DNA of 64,000 nucleotides from Bacteroidales bacterium. Its GTDB lineage: Bacteria > Bacteroidota > Bacteroidia > Bacteroidales > VadinHA17. Under the pieces are notes generated by a model. That model worked only from the letters and a program-made list of their open reading frames with translations. It made no database searches and was not told the DNA's origin. The DNA is taken from assembly GCA_029210565.1 (NCBI GenBank), contig JARGFQ010000005.1:675-64674 (forward strand), given 5' to 3'. Of this stretch, positions 35,004-44,408 are shown in pieces (position 1 is the first letter of the stretch; the number at the start of each line of letters is the position of its first letter). A program made the translations under genes and the position numbers.

Positions 35004-35693
35004 TTATCCCAGTTCTGATATCTTGCTCAGCAGGGGGTTGTCAATTATCCTGACGTCACGACCCTGGACGCTTATAATGCCTTCCTTTCTGAGCTCCGTC
35101 AGCAGCCTGACGGTATTCTCCTCTGAGATTGCGGACATCTCTCCCAGCTCCTTTCTGGTCACTGGCAGTCTGAAGCTGTCAGTGCCGTAGAATGAGGCCA
35201 GCGACAGCAGGCTTTCGGCGATTCTCCCCCTGATGTTTTTCTGATTGAGGCAGATTATCTTTTTCATTATCAGGGCAACTGATTTGCCGAATGCCCTGTT
35301 GAGCCTGAGAAGTACCTCGTGGTTCCCGAGATAGAGTTCCTTGAGAAGGTCGAGTTTCACCATGCAGACCTGAGCATCTTCAATGGCGGTTACGGAGTAG
35401 GTGTAATGGATACTCTCGAAGAATGAGAGCAGGCCGATGTAGGCAGGTGGCCTCATGAGATACAGTATGATGTTATGGCCGTTGATCCCCTCGATGTACA
35501 GCTTTGCCGTGCCCGAGGTCAGGTAGATTGCATGGCTGACACTGTCGCCCTGCCTGCATATCATCTCATGCTTGCGGAACCCGGCCCTTATAATACTTGA
35601 TTCGGGAAAAGCCTTCCCGTAGCTCCTGAAGGCATCATAGAGATCACACTTGTGTTTGCATGCTTCGCAGGGCATCTTCCCGGTAATTCTCAT
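35004..35693 (-). CDS. Crp/Fnr-family transcription factor with N-terminal Cys cluster (Fnr-like)
   Basis: It has a cNMP-binding-like beta-roll and a C-terminal HTH (RKELGEMSAISEENTVRLLTELRKEG). The N-terminus MPCEACKHKC has C-x2-C-x3-C, and there are internal Cys residues. Confidence 0.85.
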   Translation of the reverse strand: MRITGKMPCEACKHKCDLYDAFRSYGKAFPESSIIRAGFRKHEMICRQGDSVSHAIYLTSGTAKLYIEGINGHNIILYLMRPPAYIGLLSFFESIHYTYSVTAIEDAQVCMVKLDLLKELYLGNHEVLLRLNRAFGKSVALIMKKIICLNQKNIRGRIAESLLSLASFYGTDSFRLPVTRKELGEMSAISEENTVRLLTELRKEGIISVQGRDVRIIDNPLLSKISELG

Positions 35694-35795: not shown

Positions 35796-35809
35796 TTGAT
35801 TTATATCAA
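35796..35809. promoter_or_regulatory. Perfect Fnr/Crp-type palindrome TTGAT-TTAT-ATCAA
   Basis: TTGATTTATATCAA was read directly in the 206-bp divergent spacer between the Fnr-like gene and the DUF4212/SSS operon. Confidence 0.7.
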
Positions 35810-35899: not shown

Positions 35900-36670
35900 A
35901 TGGAATCAAGCGATCAGTACAATTTTAGTATTTTCTCTCCCCGTAATAAGCATGGACGAAAGAACAGGAATGTCATTTTCTCAATGCTTGCAATATGGGC
36001 GGTGGCAGTTTTCGGTTTTCAGTTCCTGCTGAGGGCAATAGAGAAGCCTACACCCGAAAAGGCTCTTACAGTTTTTGAATCTGAGTGGCCCGCTGTGACG
36101 GGGGGTAATGAGGAAATGGCCGACTACCAGGCTATCCTCACTTCACTACTTATGGTAAAAGGTAAGAATACTGTTGCCACAGGTGATCAGCAGCTTCTTA
36201 GTGAGGCAATTAGCACAGTTACATTCCGGATGGTACCCAAATCCCTCAATACGCAGGTAATGGAGAAGGTTGCCGCATTGGAGTTGATGCATGCAGACAT
36301 AGCCGCTTTGAAGGGCCAGGAGTATATGGACCTTAAATTCCGGATACAGGATGCCAGCTCCGGCCTGATAGGAATGCTTGAACCATATACAGGATACGGG
36401 ACAACAAGCCTTGAGGCGCCGATACTTGCTGCAAGTCTCAGAAAGGATTACCCTGCTTCACTGACCGAGGCATCTCTCAGCCGTCTGCCAGACATTATGA
36501 AACTGTATCTCACCCATAACCAGTCGGTGCTTACTGATACAAAATTCCTGGGATTTCCTTTCCATTACTTCTACACTGCCGTCTTTCTGCTGGTGCTTTT
36601 CGTGGTGCTTTGCATAGTCTACAACAGACTGATAGAATGGCGCTTAAACAGGGAAGGCATTGTTGAATAA
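35900..36670 (+). CDS. DUF4212-like solute:sodium symporter small subunit with a ~165-aa insertion between its two TM segments
   Basis: The N-terminal block is RKNRNVIFSMLAIWAVAVFGFQFLL and the C-terminal block is FLGFPFHYFYTAVFLLVLFVVLCIVYNRLIEW. These match the two halves of the normally ~90-aa family. The gene lies directly upstream of an SSS transporter. Confidence 0.6.
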   Translation: MESSDQYNFSIFSPRNKHGRKNRNVIFSMLAIWAVAVFGFQFLLRAIEKPTPEKALTVFESEWPAVTGGNEEMADYQAILTSLLMVKGKNTVATGDQQLLSEAISTVTFRMVPKSLNTQVMEKVAALELMHADIAALKGQEYMDLKFRIQDASSGLIGMLEPYTGYGTTSLEAPILAASLRKDYPASLTEASLSRLPDIMKLYLTHNQSVLTDTKFLGFPFHYFYTAVFLLVLFVVLCIVYNRLIEWRLNREGIVE

Positions 36671-36688
36671 GTTAATTTGCAGAGAGAG

Positions 36689-38368
36689 ATGAAAAAGTTA
36701 TACTTCACATTTATATTACTCCTGTCGGGAGCAATTTCATTAAATGCACAAAATCTCACCCAGCTCGAGGGAAGTTTCAAGACAGGTCCGGCAATCATAC
36801 TTATTGCGATTCTTGTGACATTTGTCCTGGTAGGTATCTTTTTCCGTGCCAAGGATCCTACCGACTATTATGCTGCCGGAAGGAGCATTTCCAAGGTCGG
36901 TTCGGGTATGGCCATCGCATCGAACTGGATGAGTGCAGCATCAGTGCTGGGTATGGCGGGGATGATGTACGGCTTCGGCTACAACGGTCTCGCTTATGTT
37001 GTGGGCTGGACGGGAGGTTATGTTCTGCTGCTGATTCTGATGGCTGCCCAGATCAGGAAATACGGCAAGTATACCGCACCCGACTTTATTGGTGACAGGT
37101 TCTACTCGCGTGATCTGAGGATCGTGAGCGCCATTTTCACAATACTGATATCATTTGCCTACTGCGTGGGACAGTTCGGAGGCATCGGGCTTATGTTCAA
37201 ATGGATCCTGGGCCTTAACTACTCATGGGCGGTCATCATCGGCTCGTCGGTCGTACTGCTCTACACGCTGATCTCCGGAATGATAGGGGCGACGAAGAAC
37301 ATGCAGATACAGTATGTCATTATCGTCACCTCGTTTATGCTTCCGGTATTCATTCTGGCTTTCAAGTTTGATTATTTCTGGCTGTTGCCTCAGATTGGTT
37401 ACGGGGCGGCTGTGACGGACATTGTTCAGGGCATGCCGGCGCCCAACATATCTGACGGTATGGTACTGCTCAATGCCTACAGTCACAACTTCTCCATCGT
37501 TCCCAGTCCTGAATATGCAATGCCGTGGGACCCCTCAACAGGCACAACCTTCTTCCAGTGGATGGCCATCTGTTTTTCACTGATGGTTGGCACGGCAGGA
37601 CTGCCGCACGTGATACAGAGGTTTTACGTCGTGCCGAAGATTACCGATGCACGGTGGTCAGTTGTCTGGGGGCTCTTCTTCATCAGCCTGGTATACTGGA
37701 CTGCGCCTGCGTATGCAACATTCGGAAAGATCCTCTCATCGAATCCCGAGGTGGGCGTGCTTGCCAAGGATGCCATCGTCGTTTACACTGCCCAGCTTGG
37801 TGGAGTGAACTCACTGATCGTAGGCCTGCTTGCCGCAGGCGCCGTCTCGGCAGCCTTCTCCACCGTCTCGGGTCTTCTTGTGGCAGGTGCCTCTGCCTTC
37901 TCGCATGACCTTTATGTCAAGGTCATCAATCCTGCCTCAACCCCGAAGCAACAGCTGAAAATTGCACGGTGGGGCACTGTTCTCATGGCCGTGCTGGTGA
38001 CGGTAGTGGCATTGATGAAGCTGGGACTGATTGCGCAGCTTGTATCCGTCGCTTTTTCAATGGCAGCATGCACCATTTTTCCGCTCTTCCTCCTTGGCAT
38101 CTGGTGGAGCGGAGCAAACAGGGCAGGAGCAAAAGCCGGTCTCTTCGCAGGCAGTCTTGTCACTTTCATCGCCCTGACATACTTCATCGTTGGCCTCAGC
38201 GGAGGCTCCCTTCCGGGCCAGGCCTTCATCTCATACTGGCTTAATGTGTGGTATTTTGCATGGTTTGGAGCGCCACTGGCGATTGTGGTAAATATTATCG
38301 TATCCTTACTGACAAAACCGACACCCCTGGAGATTAAGAAATTTCTTGCTGAACAGGTTCACAATTGA
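36689..38368 (+). CDS. Sodium:solute symporter (SSS) family transporter
   Basis: It has about 13 TMs and typical SSS blocks (YYAAGRSIS, GMAIASNWMSAASVLGMAG, LPHVIQRFY). The ATG at 36689 is preferred over the TTG at 36677. Confidence 0.85.
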   Translation: MKKLYFTFILLLSGAISLNAQNLTQLEGSFKTGPAIILIAILVTFVLVGIFFRAKDPTDYYAAGRSISKVGSGMAIASNWMSAASVLGMAGMMYGFGYNGLAYVVGWTGGYVLLLILMAAQIRKYGKYTAPDFIGDRFYSRDLRIVSAIFTILISFAYCVGQFGGIGLMFKWILGLNYSWAVIIGSSVVLLYTLISGMIGATKNMQIQYVIIVTSFMLPVFILAFKFDYFWLLPQIGYGAAVTDIVQGMPAPNISDGMVLLNAYSHNFSIVPSPEYAMPWDPSTGTTFFQWMAICFSLMVGTAGLPHVIQRFYVVPKITDARWSVVWGLFFISLVYWTAPAYATFGKILSSNPEVGVLAKDAIVVYTAQLGGVNSLIVGLLAAGAVSAAFSTVSGLLVAGASAFSHDLYVKVINPASTPKQQLKIARWGTVLMAVLVTVVALMKLGLIAQLVSVAFSMAACTIFPLFLLGIWWSGANRAGAKAGLFAGSLVTFIALTYFIVGLSGGSLPGQAFISYWLNVWYFAWFGAPLAIVVNIIVSLLTKPTPLEIKKFLAEQVHN

Positions 38369-39144
38369 TGAGTCTAAAAGATCTGACTGTTATATCACCG
38401 GGAACCAGGAAATTGCTGGCAATAACCATTTCGGTTGCATTGGCGGCTGTGATCTTTGCATTTTTCTATTACCGGGGTGTCAACAGGTCAGAAGACCCCC
38501 GGGTAGCAAAGGCCCGTGAGTATATGGCGGAGTATGACCGGCTCTCGGGCGGGACAGAGAGCTATGCCCTGTTCCACCTGCTTGATTCCGCAAACCTGAT
38601 TTACAGGAGGGTGCCAGGGTACGGTTCTTCTTACGAGACAGGCGTCATATACAATAATAAGGGCAGCAGCCTGCTGATGAAAGCGCTGTATGACAGCTCT
38701 TTAACGGAGTCGGGCAAAGTCGCATTCCTTGAGCTTTCCGTCACCTACTGCGACAGCGCCGTTATGGTTTACAGGAACTGGCTTGATGAGTGGGAGGCGT
38801 TCTCAGAAGAGGAGGTTGCAGTGAAGCTGACGGAGGGAATGAGTGAAAACGACCCTGCCTTTGCGGGGCTGAATTTCAAGAGTGTCTTCAGAAAACGTGT
38901 TAAGGATATGATGCTCGCCCGGGTCGAAACCCCGCGGAGGCTATCTGTCAGCTATACCAACAAGGGTACTGCATACCGTCACCTGATGATGCCGGATTCA
39001 GCGCTGGTATTTTATGAAAGGGCACTTTCAATATGGAAGCATAACCGTACGGCAGAGAGCAACCTGAGCGTGCTACTCGGCGGCGAGCCGGTGAAGCCGG
39101 GGATTATCGAGTCGCTCTTTCCTCCGGACAGGAAGAAAAAGTGA
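38368..39144 (+). CDS. Membrane-anchored TPR-like protein
   Basis: It has an N-terminal TM (LLAITISVALAAVIFAFFYY) and TPR-like segments (YTNKGTAYRHLMMPDSALVFYERALSIW). The ATG overlaps the SSS stop (TGATG). Confidence 0.55.
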   Translation: MSLKDLTVISPGTRKLLAITISVALAAVIFAFFYYRGVNRSEDPRVAKAREYMAEYDRLSGGTESYALFHLLDSANLIYRRVPGYGSSYETGVIYNNKGSSLLMKALYDSSLTESGKVAFLELSVTYCDSAVMVYRNWLDEWEAFSEEEVAVKLTEGMSENDPAFAGLNFKSVFRKRVKDMMLARVETPRRLSVSYTNKGTAYRHLMMPDSALVFYERALSIWKHNRTAESNLSVLLGGEPVKPGIIESLFPPDRKKK

Positions 39145-39379: not shown

Positions 39380-40621
39380 ATGAAAAAGTTATTACTGTTA
39401 ATTGTAGTTCTCATCTGCCTGGGACCGCCGGCTTTGGCCCAGGATGAAGACAAGGGGTGGGGGATAAAGGTCTCGGGATTCGTGAAGACGGATATCTTTT
39501 ATGATACCAGGCAGTCTACCGCCTCAAACGGCCTCAGGGAGGGACATTTTTACCTCTATCCCGACAATGTGCTTTATGACGAGGATATGAACGATCTCAA
39601 TGCCAACCCTTCGTTTCATATTCTGAACATACAAACCAGGGTCAGGGGTGATATCAAAGGCCCTGACGCCTTCGGTGCGAGGACATCGGGAGCCATCGAG
39701 GCCGAGTTCTTCGGAACGGGCGAGAGTGACATCAACGGCTTCAGGCTGCGGCATTCCTATGTTAAGATGGAGTGGCCCAAGGTGACACTTCTGGCCGGCC
39801 AGTACTGGCATCCCATGTTTCCGGCAGAGAATTTTCCCGGTACTGTCAGCTTTAACACAGGAGCGCCTTTCGTTCCCTTCAGTCGTAATCCGCAGGTAAG
39901 GTTTGTGTACAATCCCGGCACTTTTCTTAGCCTGACTATGGTGGCATACTCTCAGCGCGACTTCACCTCGTCGGGCCCGGACGGCAACAGCAGCAAATAT
40001 ATCAGGAACAGCGGAAGGCCCGGGATGCATCTGCAGTTCAGGCTGCCGGCCGGGGATAATCTGACAGCCTGGGGTGGGGTGGATTATAAGGTTTTGAGGC
40101 CAGAGATAAAGACTTCCGCCAATATTGAGACCGATGCCACCGTGGGAAGCCTGTCTGCCTTTGCCTCACTGAAGCTGAAGGCCGGGCCGGTGAATCTGTC
40201 AGTCATGGGAGTATACGCAGAGAACGGAAGTGATATGGTGATGATAGGAGGCTATGCAGCTACGGGTACTCCTGATCCTGTTGATCTCTCCAGGGAGTGG
40301 ACCACCCTTAATACCGCCTCCTTCTGGGCTGACATCAGTACAACTGTCAATAAGACCCACCTGGGCATCTTCTCAGGCTATTGCAAGAACCTCGGGGCGA
40401 AGGAACCGGTTGACGGAGACTTTTTCGGCAGGGGGAGTAATATAGATCATCTCTTCAGGCTCTCTCCGAGGATTATGGTTACGGAAGGCAAGCTGAGCAT
40501 TGCTGCTGAGCTTGAGAACACCCTGGCTGCTTACGGAACGACGCAGCCTGACGGCAGAGTGGCCGATACCGGCAGTGTCACCAATATGCGCCTGCTGCTC
40601 AGTTTCATCTACCGTTTTTAG
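39380..40621 (+). CDS. Outer-membrane porin-like beta-barrel
   Basis: It has a signal peptide MKKLLLLIVVLICLGPPALAQ, alternating strands, and a C-terminal ...LLLSFIYRF with terminal Phe. Confidence 0.7.
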   Translation: MKKLLLLIVVLICLGPPALAQDEDKGWGIKVSGFVKTDIFYDTRQSTASNGLREGHFYLYPDNVLYDEDMNDLNANPSFHILNIQTRVRGDIKGPDAFGARTSGAIEAEFFGTGESDINGFRLRHSYVKMEWPKVTLLAGQYWHPMFPAENFPGTVSFNTGAPFVPFSRNPQVRFVYNPGTFLSLTMVAYSQRDFTSSGPDGNSSKYIRNSGRPGMHLQFRLPAGDNLTAWGGVDYKVLRPEIKTSANIETDATVGSLSAFASLKLKAGPVNLSVMGVYAENGSDMVMIGGYAATGTPDPVDLSREWTTLNTASFWADISTTVNKTHLGIFSGYCKNLGAKEPVDGDFFGRGSNIDHLFRLSPRIMVTEGKLSIAAELENTLAAYGTTQPDGRVADTGSVTNMRLLLSFIYRF

Positions 40622-43479
40622 ATGGTCACGGAGTGGAAGTCGTTGCCTGCCTTAAGCATAAGCTCGTTAATATCATCTATTGCCAGGGCAGCCGCAAATT
40701 GACTGTCGGCCTGCCTGACCCTGAAGTCAACCCTGTTGTTGGGTTCACGGCCGCTGCTTATACAGGCAGCCTGATGTGTGAGACGTATATATGAAAGCTC
40801 TTTCCATGCCCGTACCGCCCTCCGAAGCAGGTCATGACTGATATGGTTGCCATCGTGAAGCCCTAGAATCCTGTCGACTGTTGAATGGCTGTCAAGACCG
40901 TGCCTGAGGGCATAGAGACGGATGACTCCCGTCAGGGCCATAAGCAGTCTCTTGATATCTGTTGTCTCTTCCGCAATAACCGAGTGTGATGGATTGAACT
41001 GTCTCAGTGCCGTAGACATATGATAGAAAAAAATATCTCCGGCCTGAAGGCTGGTCTTGACGTAGTCCCTCAGCTCGCCGCAGAGAGCCTCATCCCCAAA
41101 GCAAAACCGGAAGTCGAAGAAAATAGATATATCAAGTATCTCTGAAGGTCCGGGCATCCTGATCCAGTCAGCAAAATAGCCTTTCCAGACGTCGAGAGGC
41201 TGGCACCATTTCGGATTCCCGGCCATATTGTCGCCTTTGCAGAGAGAGAACCCGACCGTGTCAAGCATCACATTGACCCTCTTGCCGAGGGCAGGAAAGT
41301 AATTTGCAGCTTCCTTAAGCTTTTCTCCCCGGAGGTTTTCAACTATTATTGCGTTATCCTGATCTGTCACGAAGCTCTGTTCCCGGCGTCCTGCGCTGCC
41401 TGTCTGGATAAGTGAGAATCGGCACGGTGGTTTGCCCGTCTCACCGATGGCGAGCTCCGTCACCCTCTGGCAGATGGCGTCAGCAACGGATGAGATAGTT
41501 AGTGATACCGCGTACGGATCTGCCCTTGCCTGCAGCATGGCGAGAGAGGCTCTCCGGCTTTCCCTGTAGATCTTTCTGAGACCCTCGACTGAGGCTGCCG
41601 CAGCTATTTCATCAAGGATAAGCTCCGGGGTTATTGCGGCTGCATGAGCCAGATCACGGTCAGTGACCATCCCCGTCACCCTCTCTTCCGGACCGGTAAT
41701 GAGGAGGCACCCGTCGGGGCTGTTGCGTATCCGGTCCTGGGCTGCAGCGACTGTTGCATCACCCCTTATAAATAGCGGTGGCGAATGCATGACCCTGAAG
41801 ATCTCATGGCCGGACTGCATACCCCCGGCCATACCATAACCCATCGAAGCTGCATCAGCTATGCCCAGGGGCTCTCCGTTACTGTTCACAACAATGATAA
41901 CACCGGTGTCATTCTCTTTCATCAGGGCGAAGACACGTTCAAGAGGGGTGTTCTCACCGCATGACACCGCAGGCTTCATGATTGCTGAGACGGGGGCCCC
42001 GCTTATATATGAGGCACCAAACGGATCATATCCCGAGAGTGGCAATCCGGATCCTGAAGCTGAGGCTGCGAGGAGCTCAACAGTGCCATCACACCAGGTA
42101 TCATCTGTCCCTGCCCTGACAACCGTGAGGCTCACCAGTGCGCGAAACTCCGTACCGTCTCTCCTTCTGAGAAGCACCTCCCTGTTAAACAAATGATTCT
42201 CCCTCTGGAGCATCTCTCTGAGGTTCTCCATCTGCCTGGCATCGGCAAAAAGGGAATCAACATCCTGTTTTTGCAGTTCGCGGAGATCATTAAAGCCTAA
42301 TAATTCCAGTGCGGGGAGGGTAGCATTAATGAACCGCGGGTTTCTGGCATATGTCGTGCGGAAGAAACCAGTACCGGCACTGTCAAGCAGTGAGACCGGC
42401 AGTTGCATGGCTGATGCCGAGGCATGGCTCGCTGCGGGGCGGATAACAATCAGAACCGCATTACGGTCGCCGAGAGTCAGCCTGGAAAAATCTGCATGGC
42501 AGTTGACCGGACTGCCGGTTTCTGTTTTGAGCATGCAGACCGTGTATTGCCTTGCAGTAAGTTCCTCCCAGAGTTTCTGAGGACCATCGGCGTCTTTGAT
42601 AACATCACATTCAAGGATATCGGGCAGATTGCGGTTCAGAAGCTCATCCTCACTGAGTCCGATCCATGAGAGCAATGTCTTGTTTGCCTGCAGCCCACTG
42701 TCTGACCATATTATCACTCCTTCAGATGCTGCCTCGGCCAGTGTCCTGTACAGTTCTCTTGATTTTCTCAGCTCATCTTCAGCCCTGCTTCTCTTCTGCT
42801 CAATCATATGGCTCTGCCGTGACATGGCAAGCAGCAGTGCCATGATCACCAGTCCGAAAATTCCGGATATTGCTACTGCCCTGATCTCGATCCTGCGGAT
42901 CTCATCCCTGACATCGTCGACATAGATGCCTGTTCCGATGACCCACTCCCACGGTTCAAACAGTCTGACATATGACAGCTTAGGGACTATGCGGGTGGAA
43001 TCATCATTCCATTGCCACATATACTCTACATAACTCTCACCGGTTTCAGCCACGGCCTCAACAAACTCAATAAAAATTGCCTTACCCTTTGAGTCCTCTA
43101 TTCCCGTCAGGTCCTGTCCGTTGAGGTCGGGACGGTAGGGATGGGTTATCATCACGGGCTGCCTGTCAGTGATCCAGAAATAATCCTTGAGGTCCTCTCC
43201 GTACCTGATGTTATCGACGGCTCTTCTGGCCTGTTCCTGCGCCCCGGTTCTGTCAACGGTTCCCGCGCTCTCAAGCGAGTGGTAGTGTTCCAGCAGGCTG
43301 TAGACAGAGGCGGCCATCTCATGAATAAGGTGTCTCTTCCGCTCCATCATTACTTTCTCAAAACCCGGAATCAGGTAGAGGAAGATCATACCGGCAAAAA
43401 GAATAAAAGCCAGCAGGGCAGGGAGATCAACCTTAGCCAGAAAGATCTTTCTTTTTCCCTTTGAGGCTTTCTCTCTCAT
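40618..43479 (-). CDS. Membrane sensor: Cache - TM - PAS - CBS pair - DUF294 nucleotidyltransferase + DUF294_C
   Basis: There is a Cache-like periplasmic block (YFWITDRQPVMITHPYRPDLNGQDL...EPWEWVIGTGIYVDDV) between two TMs, then PAS-like regions and a CBS pair. The Pol-beta NTase motif is LIQTGSAGRREQSFVTDQDNAIIV, followed by a substrate-binding helical domain. Confidence 0.75.
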   Translation of the reverse strand: MREKASKGKRKIFLAKVDLPALLAFILFAGMIFLYLIPGFEKVMMERKRHLIHEMAASVYSLLEHYHSLESAGTVDRTGAQEQARRAVDNIRYGEDLKDYFWITDRQPVMITHPYRPDLNGQDLTGIEDSKGKAIFIEFVEAVAETGESYVEYMWQWNDDSTRIVPKLSYVRLFEPWEWVIGTGIYVDDVRDEIRRIEIRAVAISGIFGLVIMALLLAMSRQSHMIEQKRSRAEDELRKSRELYRTLAEAASEGVIIWSDSGLQANKTLLSWIGLSEDELLNRNLPDILECDVIKDADGPQKLWEELTARQYTVCMLKTETGSPVNCHADFSRLTLGDRNAVLIVIRPAASHASASAMQLPVSLLDSAGTGFFRTTYARNPRFINATLPALELLGFNDLRELQKQDVDSLFADARQMENLREMLQRENHLFNREVLLRRRDGTEFRALVSLTVVRAGTDDTWCDGTVELLAASASGSGLPLSGYDPFGASYISGAPVSAIMKPAVSCGENTPLERVFALMKENDTGVIIVVNSNGEPLGIADAASMGYGMAGGMQSGHEIFRVMHSPPLFIRGDATVAAAQDRIRNSPDGCLLITGPEERVTGMVTDRDLAHAAAITPELILDEIAAAASVEGLRKIYRESRRASLAMLQARADPYAVSLTISSVADAICQRVTELAIGETGKPPCRFSLIQTGSAGRREQSFVTDQDNAIIVENLRGEKLKEAANYFPALGKRVNVMLDTVGFSLCKGDNMAGNPKWCQPLDVWKGYFADWIRMPGPSEILDISIFFDFRFCFGDEALCGELRDYVKTSLQAGDIFFYHMSTALRQFNPSHSVIAEETTDIKRLLMALTGVIRLYALRHGLDSHSTVDRILGLHDGNHISHDLLRRAVRAWKELSYIRLTHQAACISSGREPNNRVDFRVRQADSQFAAALAIDDINELMLKAGNDFHSVTI

Positions 43480-44258
43480 GATAGTGCCTGTGTTACTTTT
43501 TCATGCATAATATACAACATCCGGGTTTCCGTATCTATCACCGAGAAGGAAGTTCTTCCGTTGCCTCCCGTCAGGGGAGGCAGCAGCATCATGGTCATCT
43601 CGTGTCCGAGGAAGATCTTGTCACCGGGGACAGGGTGCAGTGCCTTCACAAACGGAAGTGGTCCGCGGTGCGAGAAGTAGGCAAACGGTTTGTGTGAATG
43701 GCCCGACAGGGAGAAAGAGACACTGTGATGATGCATGAATTTCCACAGCTCCTTTATATGGTGTTGCCGTGCAACATACCTGGTGGTTGAGCCGGTAAAG
43801 TCAGGACAAACGTAGTGCGACAGGAGCAGCGTCATCCCGTTCTCTGAGACAATCTCATATTCAGGTATCGTATTGAGAAAGGTGATCTCCTCATCTTCCA
43901 GGTCATTAGGGTCTTCGCCTTCAAATGACCAGACGAGGCCTGCCGATGCCTCTCTTCTCTCTGAAGGGGTCATTCTGAACCATTGATCAGGATATTTGTG
44001 TCCGTTTGACCATGATGGCAGCCTGGAAGCAGCGAAGAGATCATGATTGCCGGCCACCACCCAGCGGCAGTTTGATCTGACAAGAGATACGCACTGCCTG
44101 GCGCTTCTTCGGAAGTGGTAATTAAAGAACCTGTTGTCATAACCAGTGATGTCACCCAGGCAGGTCAGCTCATCGCATCCCTGGGCATCAGCCACCCTGA
44201 GAACAGCCTCAAGCATTGACACATTTTCGTGTATATCAGTGATTATGCCAATTTTCAT
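43476..44258 (-). CDS. Calcineurin-like metallophosphoesterase
   Basis: The ATG at 44258 gives MKIGIITDIHEN. Motifs include GDITGYD, GNHD and GHSH. Its stop overlaps the start of the DUF294 gene (ATGA). Confidence 0.8.
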   Translation of the reverse strand: MKIGIITDIHENVSMLEAVLRVADAQGCDELTCLGDITGYDNRFFNYHFRRSARQCVSLVRSNCRWVVAGNHDLFAASRLPSWSNGHKYPDQWFRMTPSERREASAGLVWSFEGEDPNDLEDEEITFLNTIPEYEIVSENGMTLLLSHYVCPDFTGSTTRYVARQHHIKELWKFMHHHSVSFSLSGHSHKPFAYFSHRGPLPFVKALHPVPGDKIFLGHEMTMMLLPPLTGGNGRTSFSVIDTETRMLYIMHEKVTQALS

Positions 44259-44408
44259 CTCTTCCGGATGATGAACGTGCCTCCTCCGGCACAAATAATA
44301 AAGACCAATTTACGCACATTTGCCGGAATAGTATCCTCTTTAGCCGGCTGAGGCAATAAAATTGAAAATATCAGTATACTTGTACAATTTATTTGACGAT
44401 CACTGCCA

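Follow-up and report, generated by a model that had tools for sequence, protein, structure and literature searches.

The closest described relatives of the system analysed here are the COG2905 clusters (for example PA3232-PA3235; Sama_1525, Psest_0349), in which a protein of the architecture cNMP_binding-CBS-CBS-DUF294-DUF294_C is encoded together with an RNase_T/DnaQ-like exonuclease, beside DUF4212/sodium/solute symporter (SSS) or ActP-type symporters. Mutant fitness in Shewanella and Pseudomonas showed that DUF4212 and SSS are needed for growth on lactate or D-alanine, and that some DUF4212 genes are cofit with a nearby COG2905/RNase T gene (bioRxiv 10.1101/072470, section 42), and the Pseudomonas PA3232-PA3235 cluster is induced on propionate (PMC9765439). 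The DUF294/COG2905 family is large (2054 proteins at E <= 1e-10 among the candidates scored), adjoins acetate, lactate and alanine-type nutrient transporters in many bacteria and has resisted annotation; public annotation reads 'DUF294 nucleotidyltransferase-like domain-containing' or 'cache domain-containing'. Here we describe a DUF294 nucleotidyltransferase coupled to a metallophosphoesterase (MPE), encoded on a 64,000-nucleotide stretch of DNA from a Bacteroidales bacterium (GCA_029210565.1, contig JARGFQ010000005.1, positions 675 to 64,674; hereafter the window). The pair is conserved, tightly coupled and mutually specific, and a full-text literature search under DUF294, COG2905, PF03445 and related names found no publication on it.

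Compared with the COG2905 systems, this locus has the same DUF294 and DUF294_C module with identical conserved residues, a CBS pair and a tightly linked gene for a phosphodiester hydrolase, and a VC_2705-family symporter with a DUF4212 subunit lies nearby. The input differs, being sCache_2 and PAS here and a cytoplasmic cNMP-binding domain there, and so does the partner, an upstream MPE here and a DEDDh exonuclease, usually downstream, there; the two kinds of DUF294 protein also fall in separate clades.

A conserved metallophosphoesterase-DUF294 pair

The two genes lie on the minus strand of the window, the MPE gene first, and have the following features.

43476..44258, minus strand: MPE gene, 260 aa, ATG at 44258; cytoplasmic, without signal peptide; metal ligands D8, H10, D36, N71, H72, H148, H187, H189
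43476..43479, minus strand: overlap of the MPE stop and the sensor start, ATGA (TCAT on the plus strand)
40618..43479, minus strand: sensor nucleotidyltransferase gene, a 953-aa membrane protein with an ATG start
42892..43347, minus strand: sCache_2, residues 45-196, periplasmic (Pfam 1.8e-36 and PDB matches)
42439..42756, minus strand: PAS, residues 242-347 (Pfam)
41602..41991, minus strand: CBS pair, residues 497-626 (Pfam and PDB sequence matches)
41146..41553, minus strand: DUF294 Pol-beta nucleotidyltransferase core, residues 643-778 (Pfam, conservation)
within 41341-41400, minus strand: motif GSxGRxE-x5-DQDN, residues 694-709, at least 92% conserved in 104 DUF294 domains
40621..41004, minus strand: DUF294_C helical domain, residues 826-953 (Pfam match 826-919), with conserved K843, R854 and R870

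The TGA of the MPE gene overlaps the ATG of the sensor gene, as an earlier sequence-only reading of this DNA had proposed; its coordinates, domain order and quoted motif (GSAGRREQSFVTDQDNAIIV, residues 694-713 of the sensor) were all correct. From its N-terminus the sensor consists of a short basic stretch, a transmembrane segment, sCache_2, a second transmembrane segment, PAS, a PAS-like stretch, the CBS pair, DUF294 and DUF294_C. Both halves of the transferase module score well above the Pfam cut-offs (DUF294, PF03445: 130.5 bits, 5e-38, cut-off 21; DUF294_C, PF10335: 59.7 bits, 3.6e-16, cut-off 22.5), and the MPE matches Metallophos (PF00149: 8e-13, 49.7 bits, cut-off 21.5) and Metallophos_2 (1e-12). 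The open reading frame of the MPE extends over 43476..44294 from a TTG, but this TTG at 44294 is an unlikely alternative start; the ATG at 44258 is the likely one, because all homologues begin there with MK[IL]G[IL]I[TS]DIHE.

The adjacency of the two genes is conserved far beyond chance. Among 41 related genomes of the same order, eight from the genus itself and members of four further families, in which MPE identity falls to 27-36%, carry the MPE gene and a strong DUF294 match together on one contig and strand, with the MPE gene upstream; the genomes without DUF294 are also without this kind of MPE. A wider scan with the MPE alignment against one genome per species gave more than 543 loci confirmed by tblastn, of which the best 80 were examined. 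At 72 of these 80 loci, among which MPE identity reaches as low as 28%, the next gene on the same strand encodes a Cache-(PAS)-(CBS)-DUF294 protein of 740-1000 aa, and of 70 loci, 55 have a spacing of -4 to +21 nt between the stop codon of the first gene and the start codon of the second. The loci belong to Bacteroidales, Marinilabiliales and Prolixibacteraceae, Cytophagales, Ignavibacteriota and Chlorobiota, with a few metagenome-assembled genomes (MAGs) labelled Aminicenantes, Binatia and Patescibacteria. The sequence-only reading had named an adjacency unique to this genome as fatal to its idea, and these counts show that the adjacency is widespread.

Five of the eight loci that have no downstream DUF294 stop at a contig edge (L036, L039, L042, L072, L084). 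The other three, L067, L071 and L079, from MAGs labelled Chloroherpeton, Binatia and Bacteroidales, have no DUF294 gene downstream despite sufficient sequence, and could reflect gene loss, misassembly or an independent role. At L057, no Cache open reading frame was found within 839 nt after the MPE gene.

The specificity of the pairing was also evident in a phylum-level sample of 401 evenly drawn genomes with a completeness of 90% or more. Exactly four of them (G000, G140, G204, G364) contain a protein that matches the MPE subfamily over its full length (E <= 1e-84), its gene adjoining a Cache-type DUF294 gene in every case, and in a fifth genome with a Cache-type DUF294 the contig is cut at the gene; the next-best MPE match in the sample is partial, N-terminal and much weaker (1.6e-21). 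Against 1.8 billion cluster representatives, the subfamily comprises 169 clusters at E <= 1e-30. Together the sample and the cluster counts define the MPE as a discrete subfamily, confined in the sampled genomes to this DUF294 clade. It is very likely that MPE and sensor are a real functional pair.

Several possible fusions of the two proteins were considered and set aside. P0005 (485 aa) and P0125 join a C-terminal piece of the MPE to Cache on short contigs and are too fragmentary, PF00149 is absent among the 120 best DUF294 homologues, and the 350-aa extension at the C-terminus of the MPEs P0152 and P0155 is not a DUF294 module by hhalign (probability 0.2). P0155 (L134-L136) represents marine metagenome MPEs at the edge of the subfamily, whose extension of about 350 aa has no Pfam match and which adjoin CitG, not DUF294; three edge members of the MPE family sit on contigs of only about 1 kb. 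A complex prediction for the MPE with sensor residues 490-953, both supplied as alignments, scored 0.00 and is uninformative either way.

Two hydrolase families beside sister DUF294 clades

The exonuclease-linked relatives were characterized in a comparison set of 40 DUF294 loci that was drawn from the same phylum and covers about 35 genera. The relatives of about 640 aa are cytoplasmic proteins with the order cNMP_binding-CBS-CBS-DUF294-DUF294_C, and RNase_T (PF00929) is the gene directly downstream of them in 19 of 22 cases. At two loci, L111 and L127, RNase_T lies directly upstream (with a 7 nt gap and an 8 nt overlap), the slot that the MPE holds here. Counting either side, 21 of about 35 cNMP-CBS-DUF294 loci in the phylum have an RNase_T partner. 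The sequence-only reading was right to treat the exonuclease as the usual partner of DUF294; it had placed this partner in other phyla, and the exonuclease is in fact also common in the same phylum, beside the cytoplasmic cNMP-CBS form. One clade of seven cNMP-CBS-DUF294 loci has no adjacent hydrolase (L094, L095, L098, L123, L124, L131, L132), and some of these adjoin an acetyl-CoA synthetase or an SNF-family transporter.

Phylogenetic analysis of the DUF294 module unites the MPE-linked proteins in a single clade (FastTree 94; IQ-TREE SH-aLRT 97). The nearest group to it (support 100) holds both loci with an upstream exonuclease, and the main clade with a downstream exonuclease is separated by a branch with support 98. 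The tree is unrooted, and we claim no order of partner acquisition from it. The MPE-clade loci were gathered via the MPE, so that their partner label is not independent of the search; the four members from the phylum sample were gathered via DUF294. Partner type tracks DUF294 clade, and two unrelated hydrolases occupy one slot. Across these loci the MPE is conserved as a dedicated companion of one DUF294 clade, in the place that a DEDDh enzyme holds beside related DUF294 genes, and we consider it probable that the MPE is a functional stand-in for the exonuclease. The presence of two unrelated phosphodiester hydrolases in one slot beside sister clades narrows the missing chemistry to the making and breaking of a nucleoside monophosphate (NMP) phosphodiester.

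Enzyme folds, proposed switch and competing readings

Judged by their residues, both enzymes look catalytically competent. The Pol-beta nucleotidyltransferase (NTase) signature G[SG]-x(9-13)-DxD and a third carboxylate are present in the sensor: G694, S695, G697, R698, E700, D706, Q707, D708, N709 and D789, the last just past the DUF294 Pfam match, are at least 92% conserved in the 104 DUF294 domains, which include both partner types. The basic residues K843, R854 and R870 are conserved across the same domains. The AlphaFold2 (AF2) model of residues 630-953 (pLDDT 95.2) has the three-part fold of GlnE/DrrA-type enzymes, namely a helical bundle, an NTase core and a C-terminal helical domain, and in Foldseek it reached template modelling (TM) scores of 0.69 to DrrA (6yx5_B) and of 0.68 (1v4a) and 0.71 (3k7d) to the two halves of GlnE. 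Matches to aminoglycoside NTases (about 0.3), Hailong HalB (0.26), CdnE (0.22) and a TUTase (0.20) were far weaker. By its predicted fold, DUF294 resembles protein AMPylases (DrrA, GlnE) rather than enzymes that make cyclic nucleotides or tail RNA. At the sequence level it falls outside GlnE (NCBIfam NF010707: 19.6 bits, cut-off 625; a weak profile match over 627-740), and a PDB sequence search with the DUF294 region found no solved relative, with matches only to the CBS and Cache parts.

The MPE carries the motifs DxH, GD, GNHD/E, H and GHxH, with D8, H10, D36, N71, H72, D73, H148, H187 and H189 conserved and the metal ligands either invariant or conserved to 90% or more across 64 homologues; it also has a conserved insert of its own (P81, P90, W93, W110). 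Its AF2 model (pLDDT 91.3) is closest to the uncharacterised MPE 3rqz (TM 0.64), followed by SapH (an Ap4A hydrolase/phosphodiesterase), 1nnw, 2gju and the phosphodiesterase MJ0936. PPP-type Ser/Thr phosphatases are not the closest class, PP1 and lambda phosphatase ranking lower (TM 0.37-0.48), and the protein is not a YfcE by NF006988 (23.9 bits against 117, the match being confined to the N-terminal 38 residues). The modelled fold is of the phosphodiesterase/nucleotide-hydrolase type. The closest solved relatives, streptococcal SapH/Spr1479, MJ0936/YfcE and 3rqz, share the MPE fold and the same five metal-binding motifs, but identity to SapH, MJ0936 and 3rqz is 17-22% and TM 0.55-0.64, and the MPE described here differs from them in its insert and in being encoded, in the genomes sampled, only beside Cache-DUF294.

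The likely input is suggested by the sensor domain, which has strong PDB sequence matches to Cache domains of chemoreceptors, 5g4y/5g4z (E 1.3e-35) and 4k08 (E 4.9e-33). These structures were solved with acetate or propionate bound. The periplasmic sCache_2 is probably a carboxylate sensor for acetate-like acids. In those sCache_2 chemoreceptors the output is a methyl-accepting chemotaxis module, whereas here it is a nucleotidyltransferase.

We propose that the sCache_2 domain would bind a short-chain carboxylate in the periplasm and that the signal would travel via PAS and CBS to the cytoplasmic DUF294 domain. This domain would then move an NMP from a nucleoside triphosphate (NTP) to a hydroxyl of a protein, which could be the sensor itself, part of the adjacent symporter or a protein that regulates it, and the MPE would hydrolyse the protein-NMP phosphodiester, free the 5'-NMP and reset the switch, which would regulate, or be co-regulated with, carboxylate uptake. 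DEDDh exonucleases and MPEs have a chemistry in common, two-metal phosphodiester hydrolysis with release of a 5'-NMP. This shared chemistry, joined to a transferase of GlnE/DrrA fold with a single NTase domain, suggests reversible protein nucleotidylylation with the MPE as the remover. This is the writer/eraser idea of the sequence-only reading, which is well motivated and supported in part by the results above. GlnE and Legionella DrrA/SidM, the best structural matches, are likewise transferases paired with a separate removing enzyme (the GlnE AT-N domain and SidD, respectively), SidD being a metal-dependent phosphatase-fold de-AMPylase; the GlnE/DrrA fold of the transferase points to a protein substrate. 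The differences are that identity is only 13-15%, that there is one NTase domain here, not two, within a membrane receptor, and that the eraser fold is MPE, not PP2C or NTase.

We read MPE and sensor as a dedicated, co-inherited signalling pair tied to a carboxylate-uptake set (DUF4212/SSS, a tetratricopeptide repeat (TPR) protein and an outer-membrane channel); the full scheme, in which the sensor reversibly nucleotidylylates a protein and the MPE resets it, we regard as an evenly balanced call. For the chemistry taken separately, we infer reversible protein nucleotidylylation with a confidence at or slightly under an even chance. Somewhat more tentatively, a carboxylate receptor that reversibly nucleotidylylates a cytoplasmic protein (the symporter system or itself), with an MPE to reverse it, could constitute a third transmembrane output besides kinases and nucleotide cyclases; the cytoplasmic counterpart of this switch would be the COG2905 proteins that Proteobacteria and Flavobacteriia encode beside an exonuclease. 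If so, the MPE would be the first MPE-fold de-nucleotidylylase. The scheme suggests a new route by which anaerobic Bacteroidales and their relatives could link external short-chain acid levels with uptake, and gives an unstudied enzyme family a testable on/off mechanism.

Several points weigh against protein nucleotidylylation. A search of the full-text literature found no biochemical activity reported for any DUF294 protein. No DEDDh exonuclease is known to strip NMP from protein, so that a nucleic acid or an oligonucleotide is at least as good a candidate for the substrate of the exonuclease in the sister systems. Among characterised proteins, the nearest relatives of the MPE use small nucleotides or model diesters as substrates and not proteins, and MPE-DUF294 fusions are not established, there being just two fragmentary MPE-Cache read-throughs. 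In mutant fitness data (Price et al., bioRxiv 10.1101/072470), moreover, the COG2905/RNase T gene patterns with the transporter, and an eraser mutant would not obviously be expected to do so.

Some of these points would sit well with an alternative that the sequence-only reading also raised, in which the product of DUF294 is a diffusible nucleotide signal, whether an oligonucleotide (linear or cyclic) or a dinucleoside polyphosphate, which the MPE or the DEDDh exonuclease would degrade. Both partner families are phosphodiester hydrolases that include small-nucleotide hydrolases, with oligoribonuclease-type enzymes among the DEDDh family and SapH as the closest characterised relative of the MPE, and the cytoplasmic DUF294 forms bear cNMP-binding and CBS domains, both of them nucleotide binders. 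A reader could be found in the orphan 'TIGR03647 riboswitch candidate', which has 770 examples directly upstream of DUF4212 genes in other lineages and an unknown ligand (PMC6429828). This element may be linked to nearby DUF294 systems, and that the DUF294 product is its ligand is a long shot. Rfam returned no family above threshold in the window or in 10 related loci, the presence of the TIGR03647 motif in Rfam 15 being unconfirmed. The transferase fold also argues the other way, lying nearest to protein AMPylases (TM about 0.7) and far from CD-NTase and TUTase (about 0.2), and the neighbouring Crp-family regulator, with its N-terminal cysteine cluster, looks FNR-like, not like a nucleotide reader. 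Overall we consider a diffusible signal unlikely, though a serious competitor.

The exonuclease family of the sister systems also recalls RNA 3'-end control, in which the NTase would tail RNA in the manner of CCA-adding or MenT-type enzymes and the partner, exonuclease or MPE, would trim the tail, thereby governing how the symporter mRNA is expressed; a need for the COG2905 gene in symporter expression has been put forward as speculation by Price et al. (bioRxiv 10.1101/072470). The poor structural match to RNA nucleotidyltransferases (TM 0.20), nearest MPE relatives that are not Mre11/SbcD-type nucleases and the lack of an RNA element in the Rfam searches of the window and related loci make this improbable. 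Less probable still is that the MPE plays no part in the transferase chemistry and is a metabolic or housekeeping phosphoesterase that has no more than the operon in common with the sensor, its substrate being, for example, a compound taken up from outside. MPEs serve very diverse functions, but the MPE follows DUF294 and not the transporter, the order of MPE then DUF294 staying constant while SSS type and gene order vary; in the 401-genome sample its subfamily is seen only in genomes with a Cache-type DUF294, and an exonuclease fills the same slot in the nearest sister group.

The neighbouring symporter cluster

The genes that connect the pair to carboxylate uptake lie on the other side of the sensor gene.

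35004..35693, minus strand: Crp/Fnr-family regulator with an N-terminal CxxCxxxC, divergent from the symporter operon
35900..36670, plus strand: DUF4212 small subunit of the symporter, long form, 256 aa (TIGR03647, 37.9 bits, cut-off 26.05)
36677..38368, plus strand: SSS large subunit, VC_2705 family (TIGR03648, 491.9 bits, cut-off 320.75)
38365..39144, plus strand: TPR protein, its start overlapping the symporter stop; present in 35 of the 80 loci
39380..40621, plus strand: DcaP-like outer-membrane channel, converging on the sensor gene; present in 38 of the 80 loci

Of the 80 loci, 54 have an SSS gene no more than 6 kb away. Here the channel and sensor genes run towards each other, on the plus and minus strand respectively, with an end overlap of 4 nt at 40618-40621, whereas in many Bacteroidota the transport genes are co-directional and run into the MPE and sensor genes, with the channel just upstream of the MPE. 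Since the transport genes converge on the sensor gene in this genus, its cluster was rearranged. In other lineages a different SSS (25-38% identity, against about 72%) stands immediately upstream of the MPE. Because SSS type and gene order vary in this way while the MPE-then-DUF294 order holds, the MPE tracks the transferase, not the transporter.

The DUF4212 subunit has 256 aa instead of about 80, owing to some 165 residues, probably periplasmic, inserted between its two transmembrane helices. Its cytoplasmic N-terminal tail carries [YF]-x-[IF]-S-[FI]-F-x-P in 13 homologues. The small SSS subunit, which the sequence-only reading had named as a candidate target of the transferase, is only a guess. 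The tyrosine of this tail was considered as the modified site and set aside, being phenylalanine in 3 of the 13 homologues; only a neighbouring serine is invariant, and modification of this tail is at most a lead.

The CxxCxxxC of the Crp/Fnr regulator resembles that of oxygen-sensing FNR. Together with a perfect FNR-type box upstream of the symporter operon, this weakens the idea that the Crp-family neighbour reads a nucleotide made by DUF294. The box is the FNR/CRP-type palindrome TTGATTTATATCAA at 35796-35809; it lies in the region that the DUF4212 gene shares with the divergent Crp/Fnr gene, some 90 nt ahead of the former.

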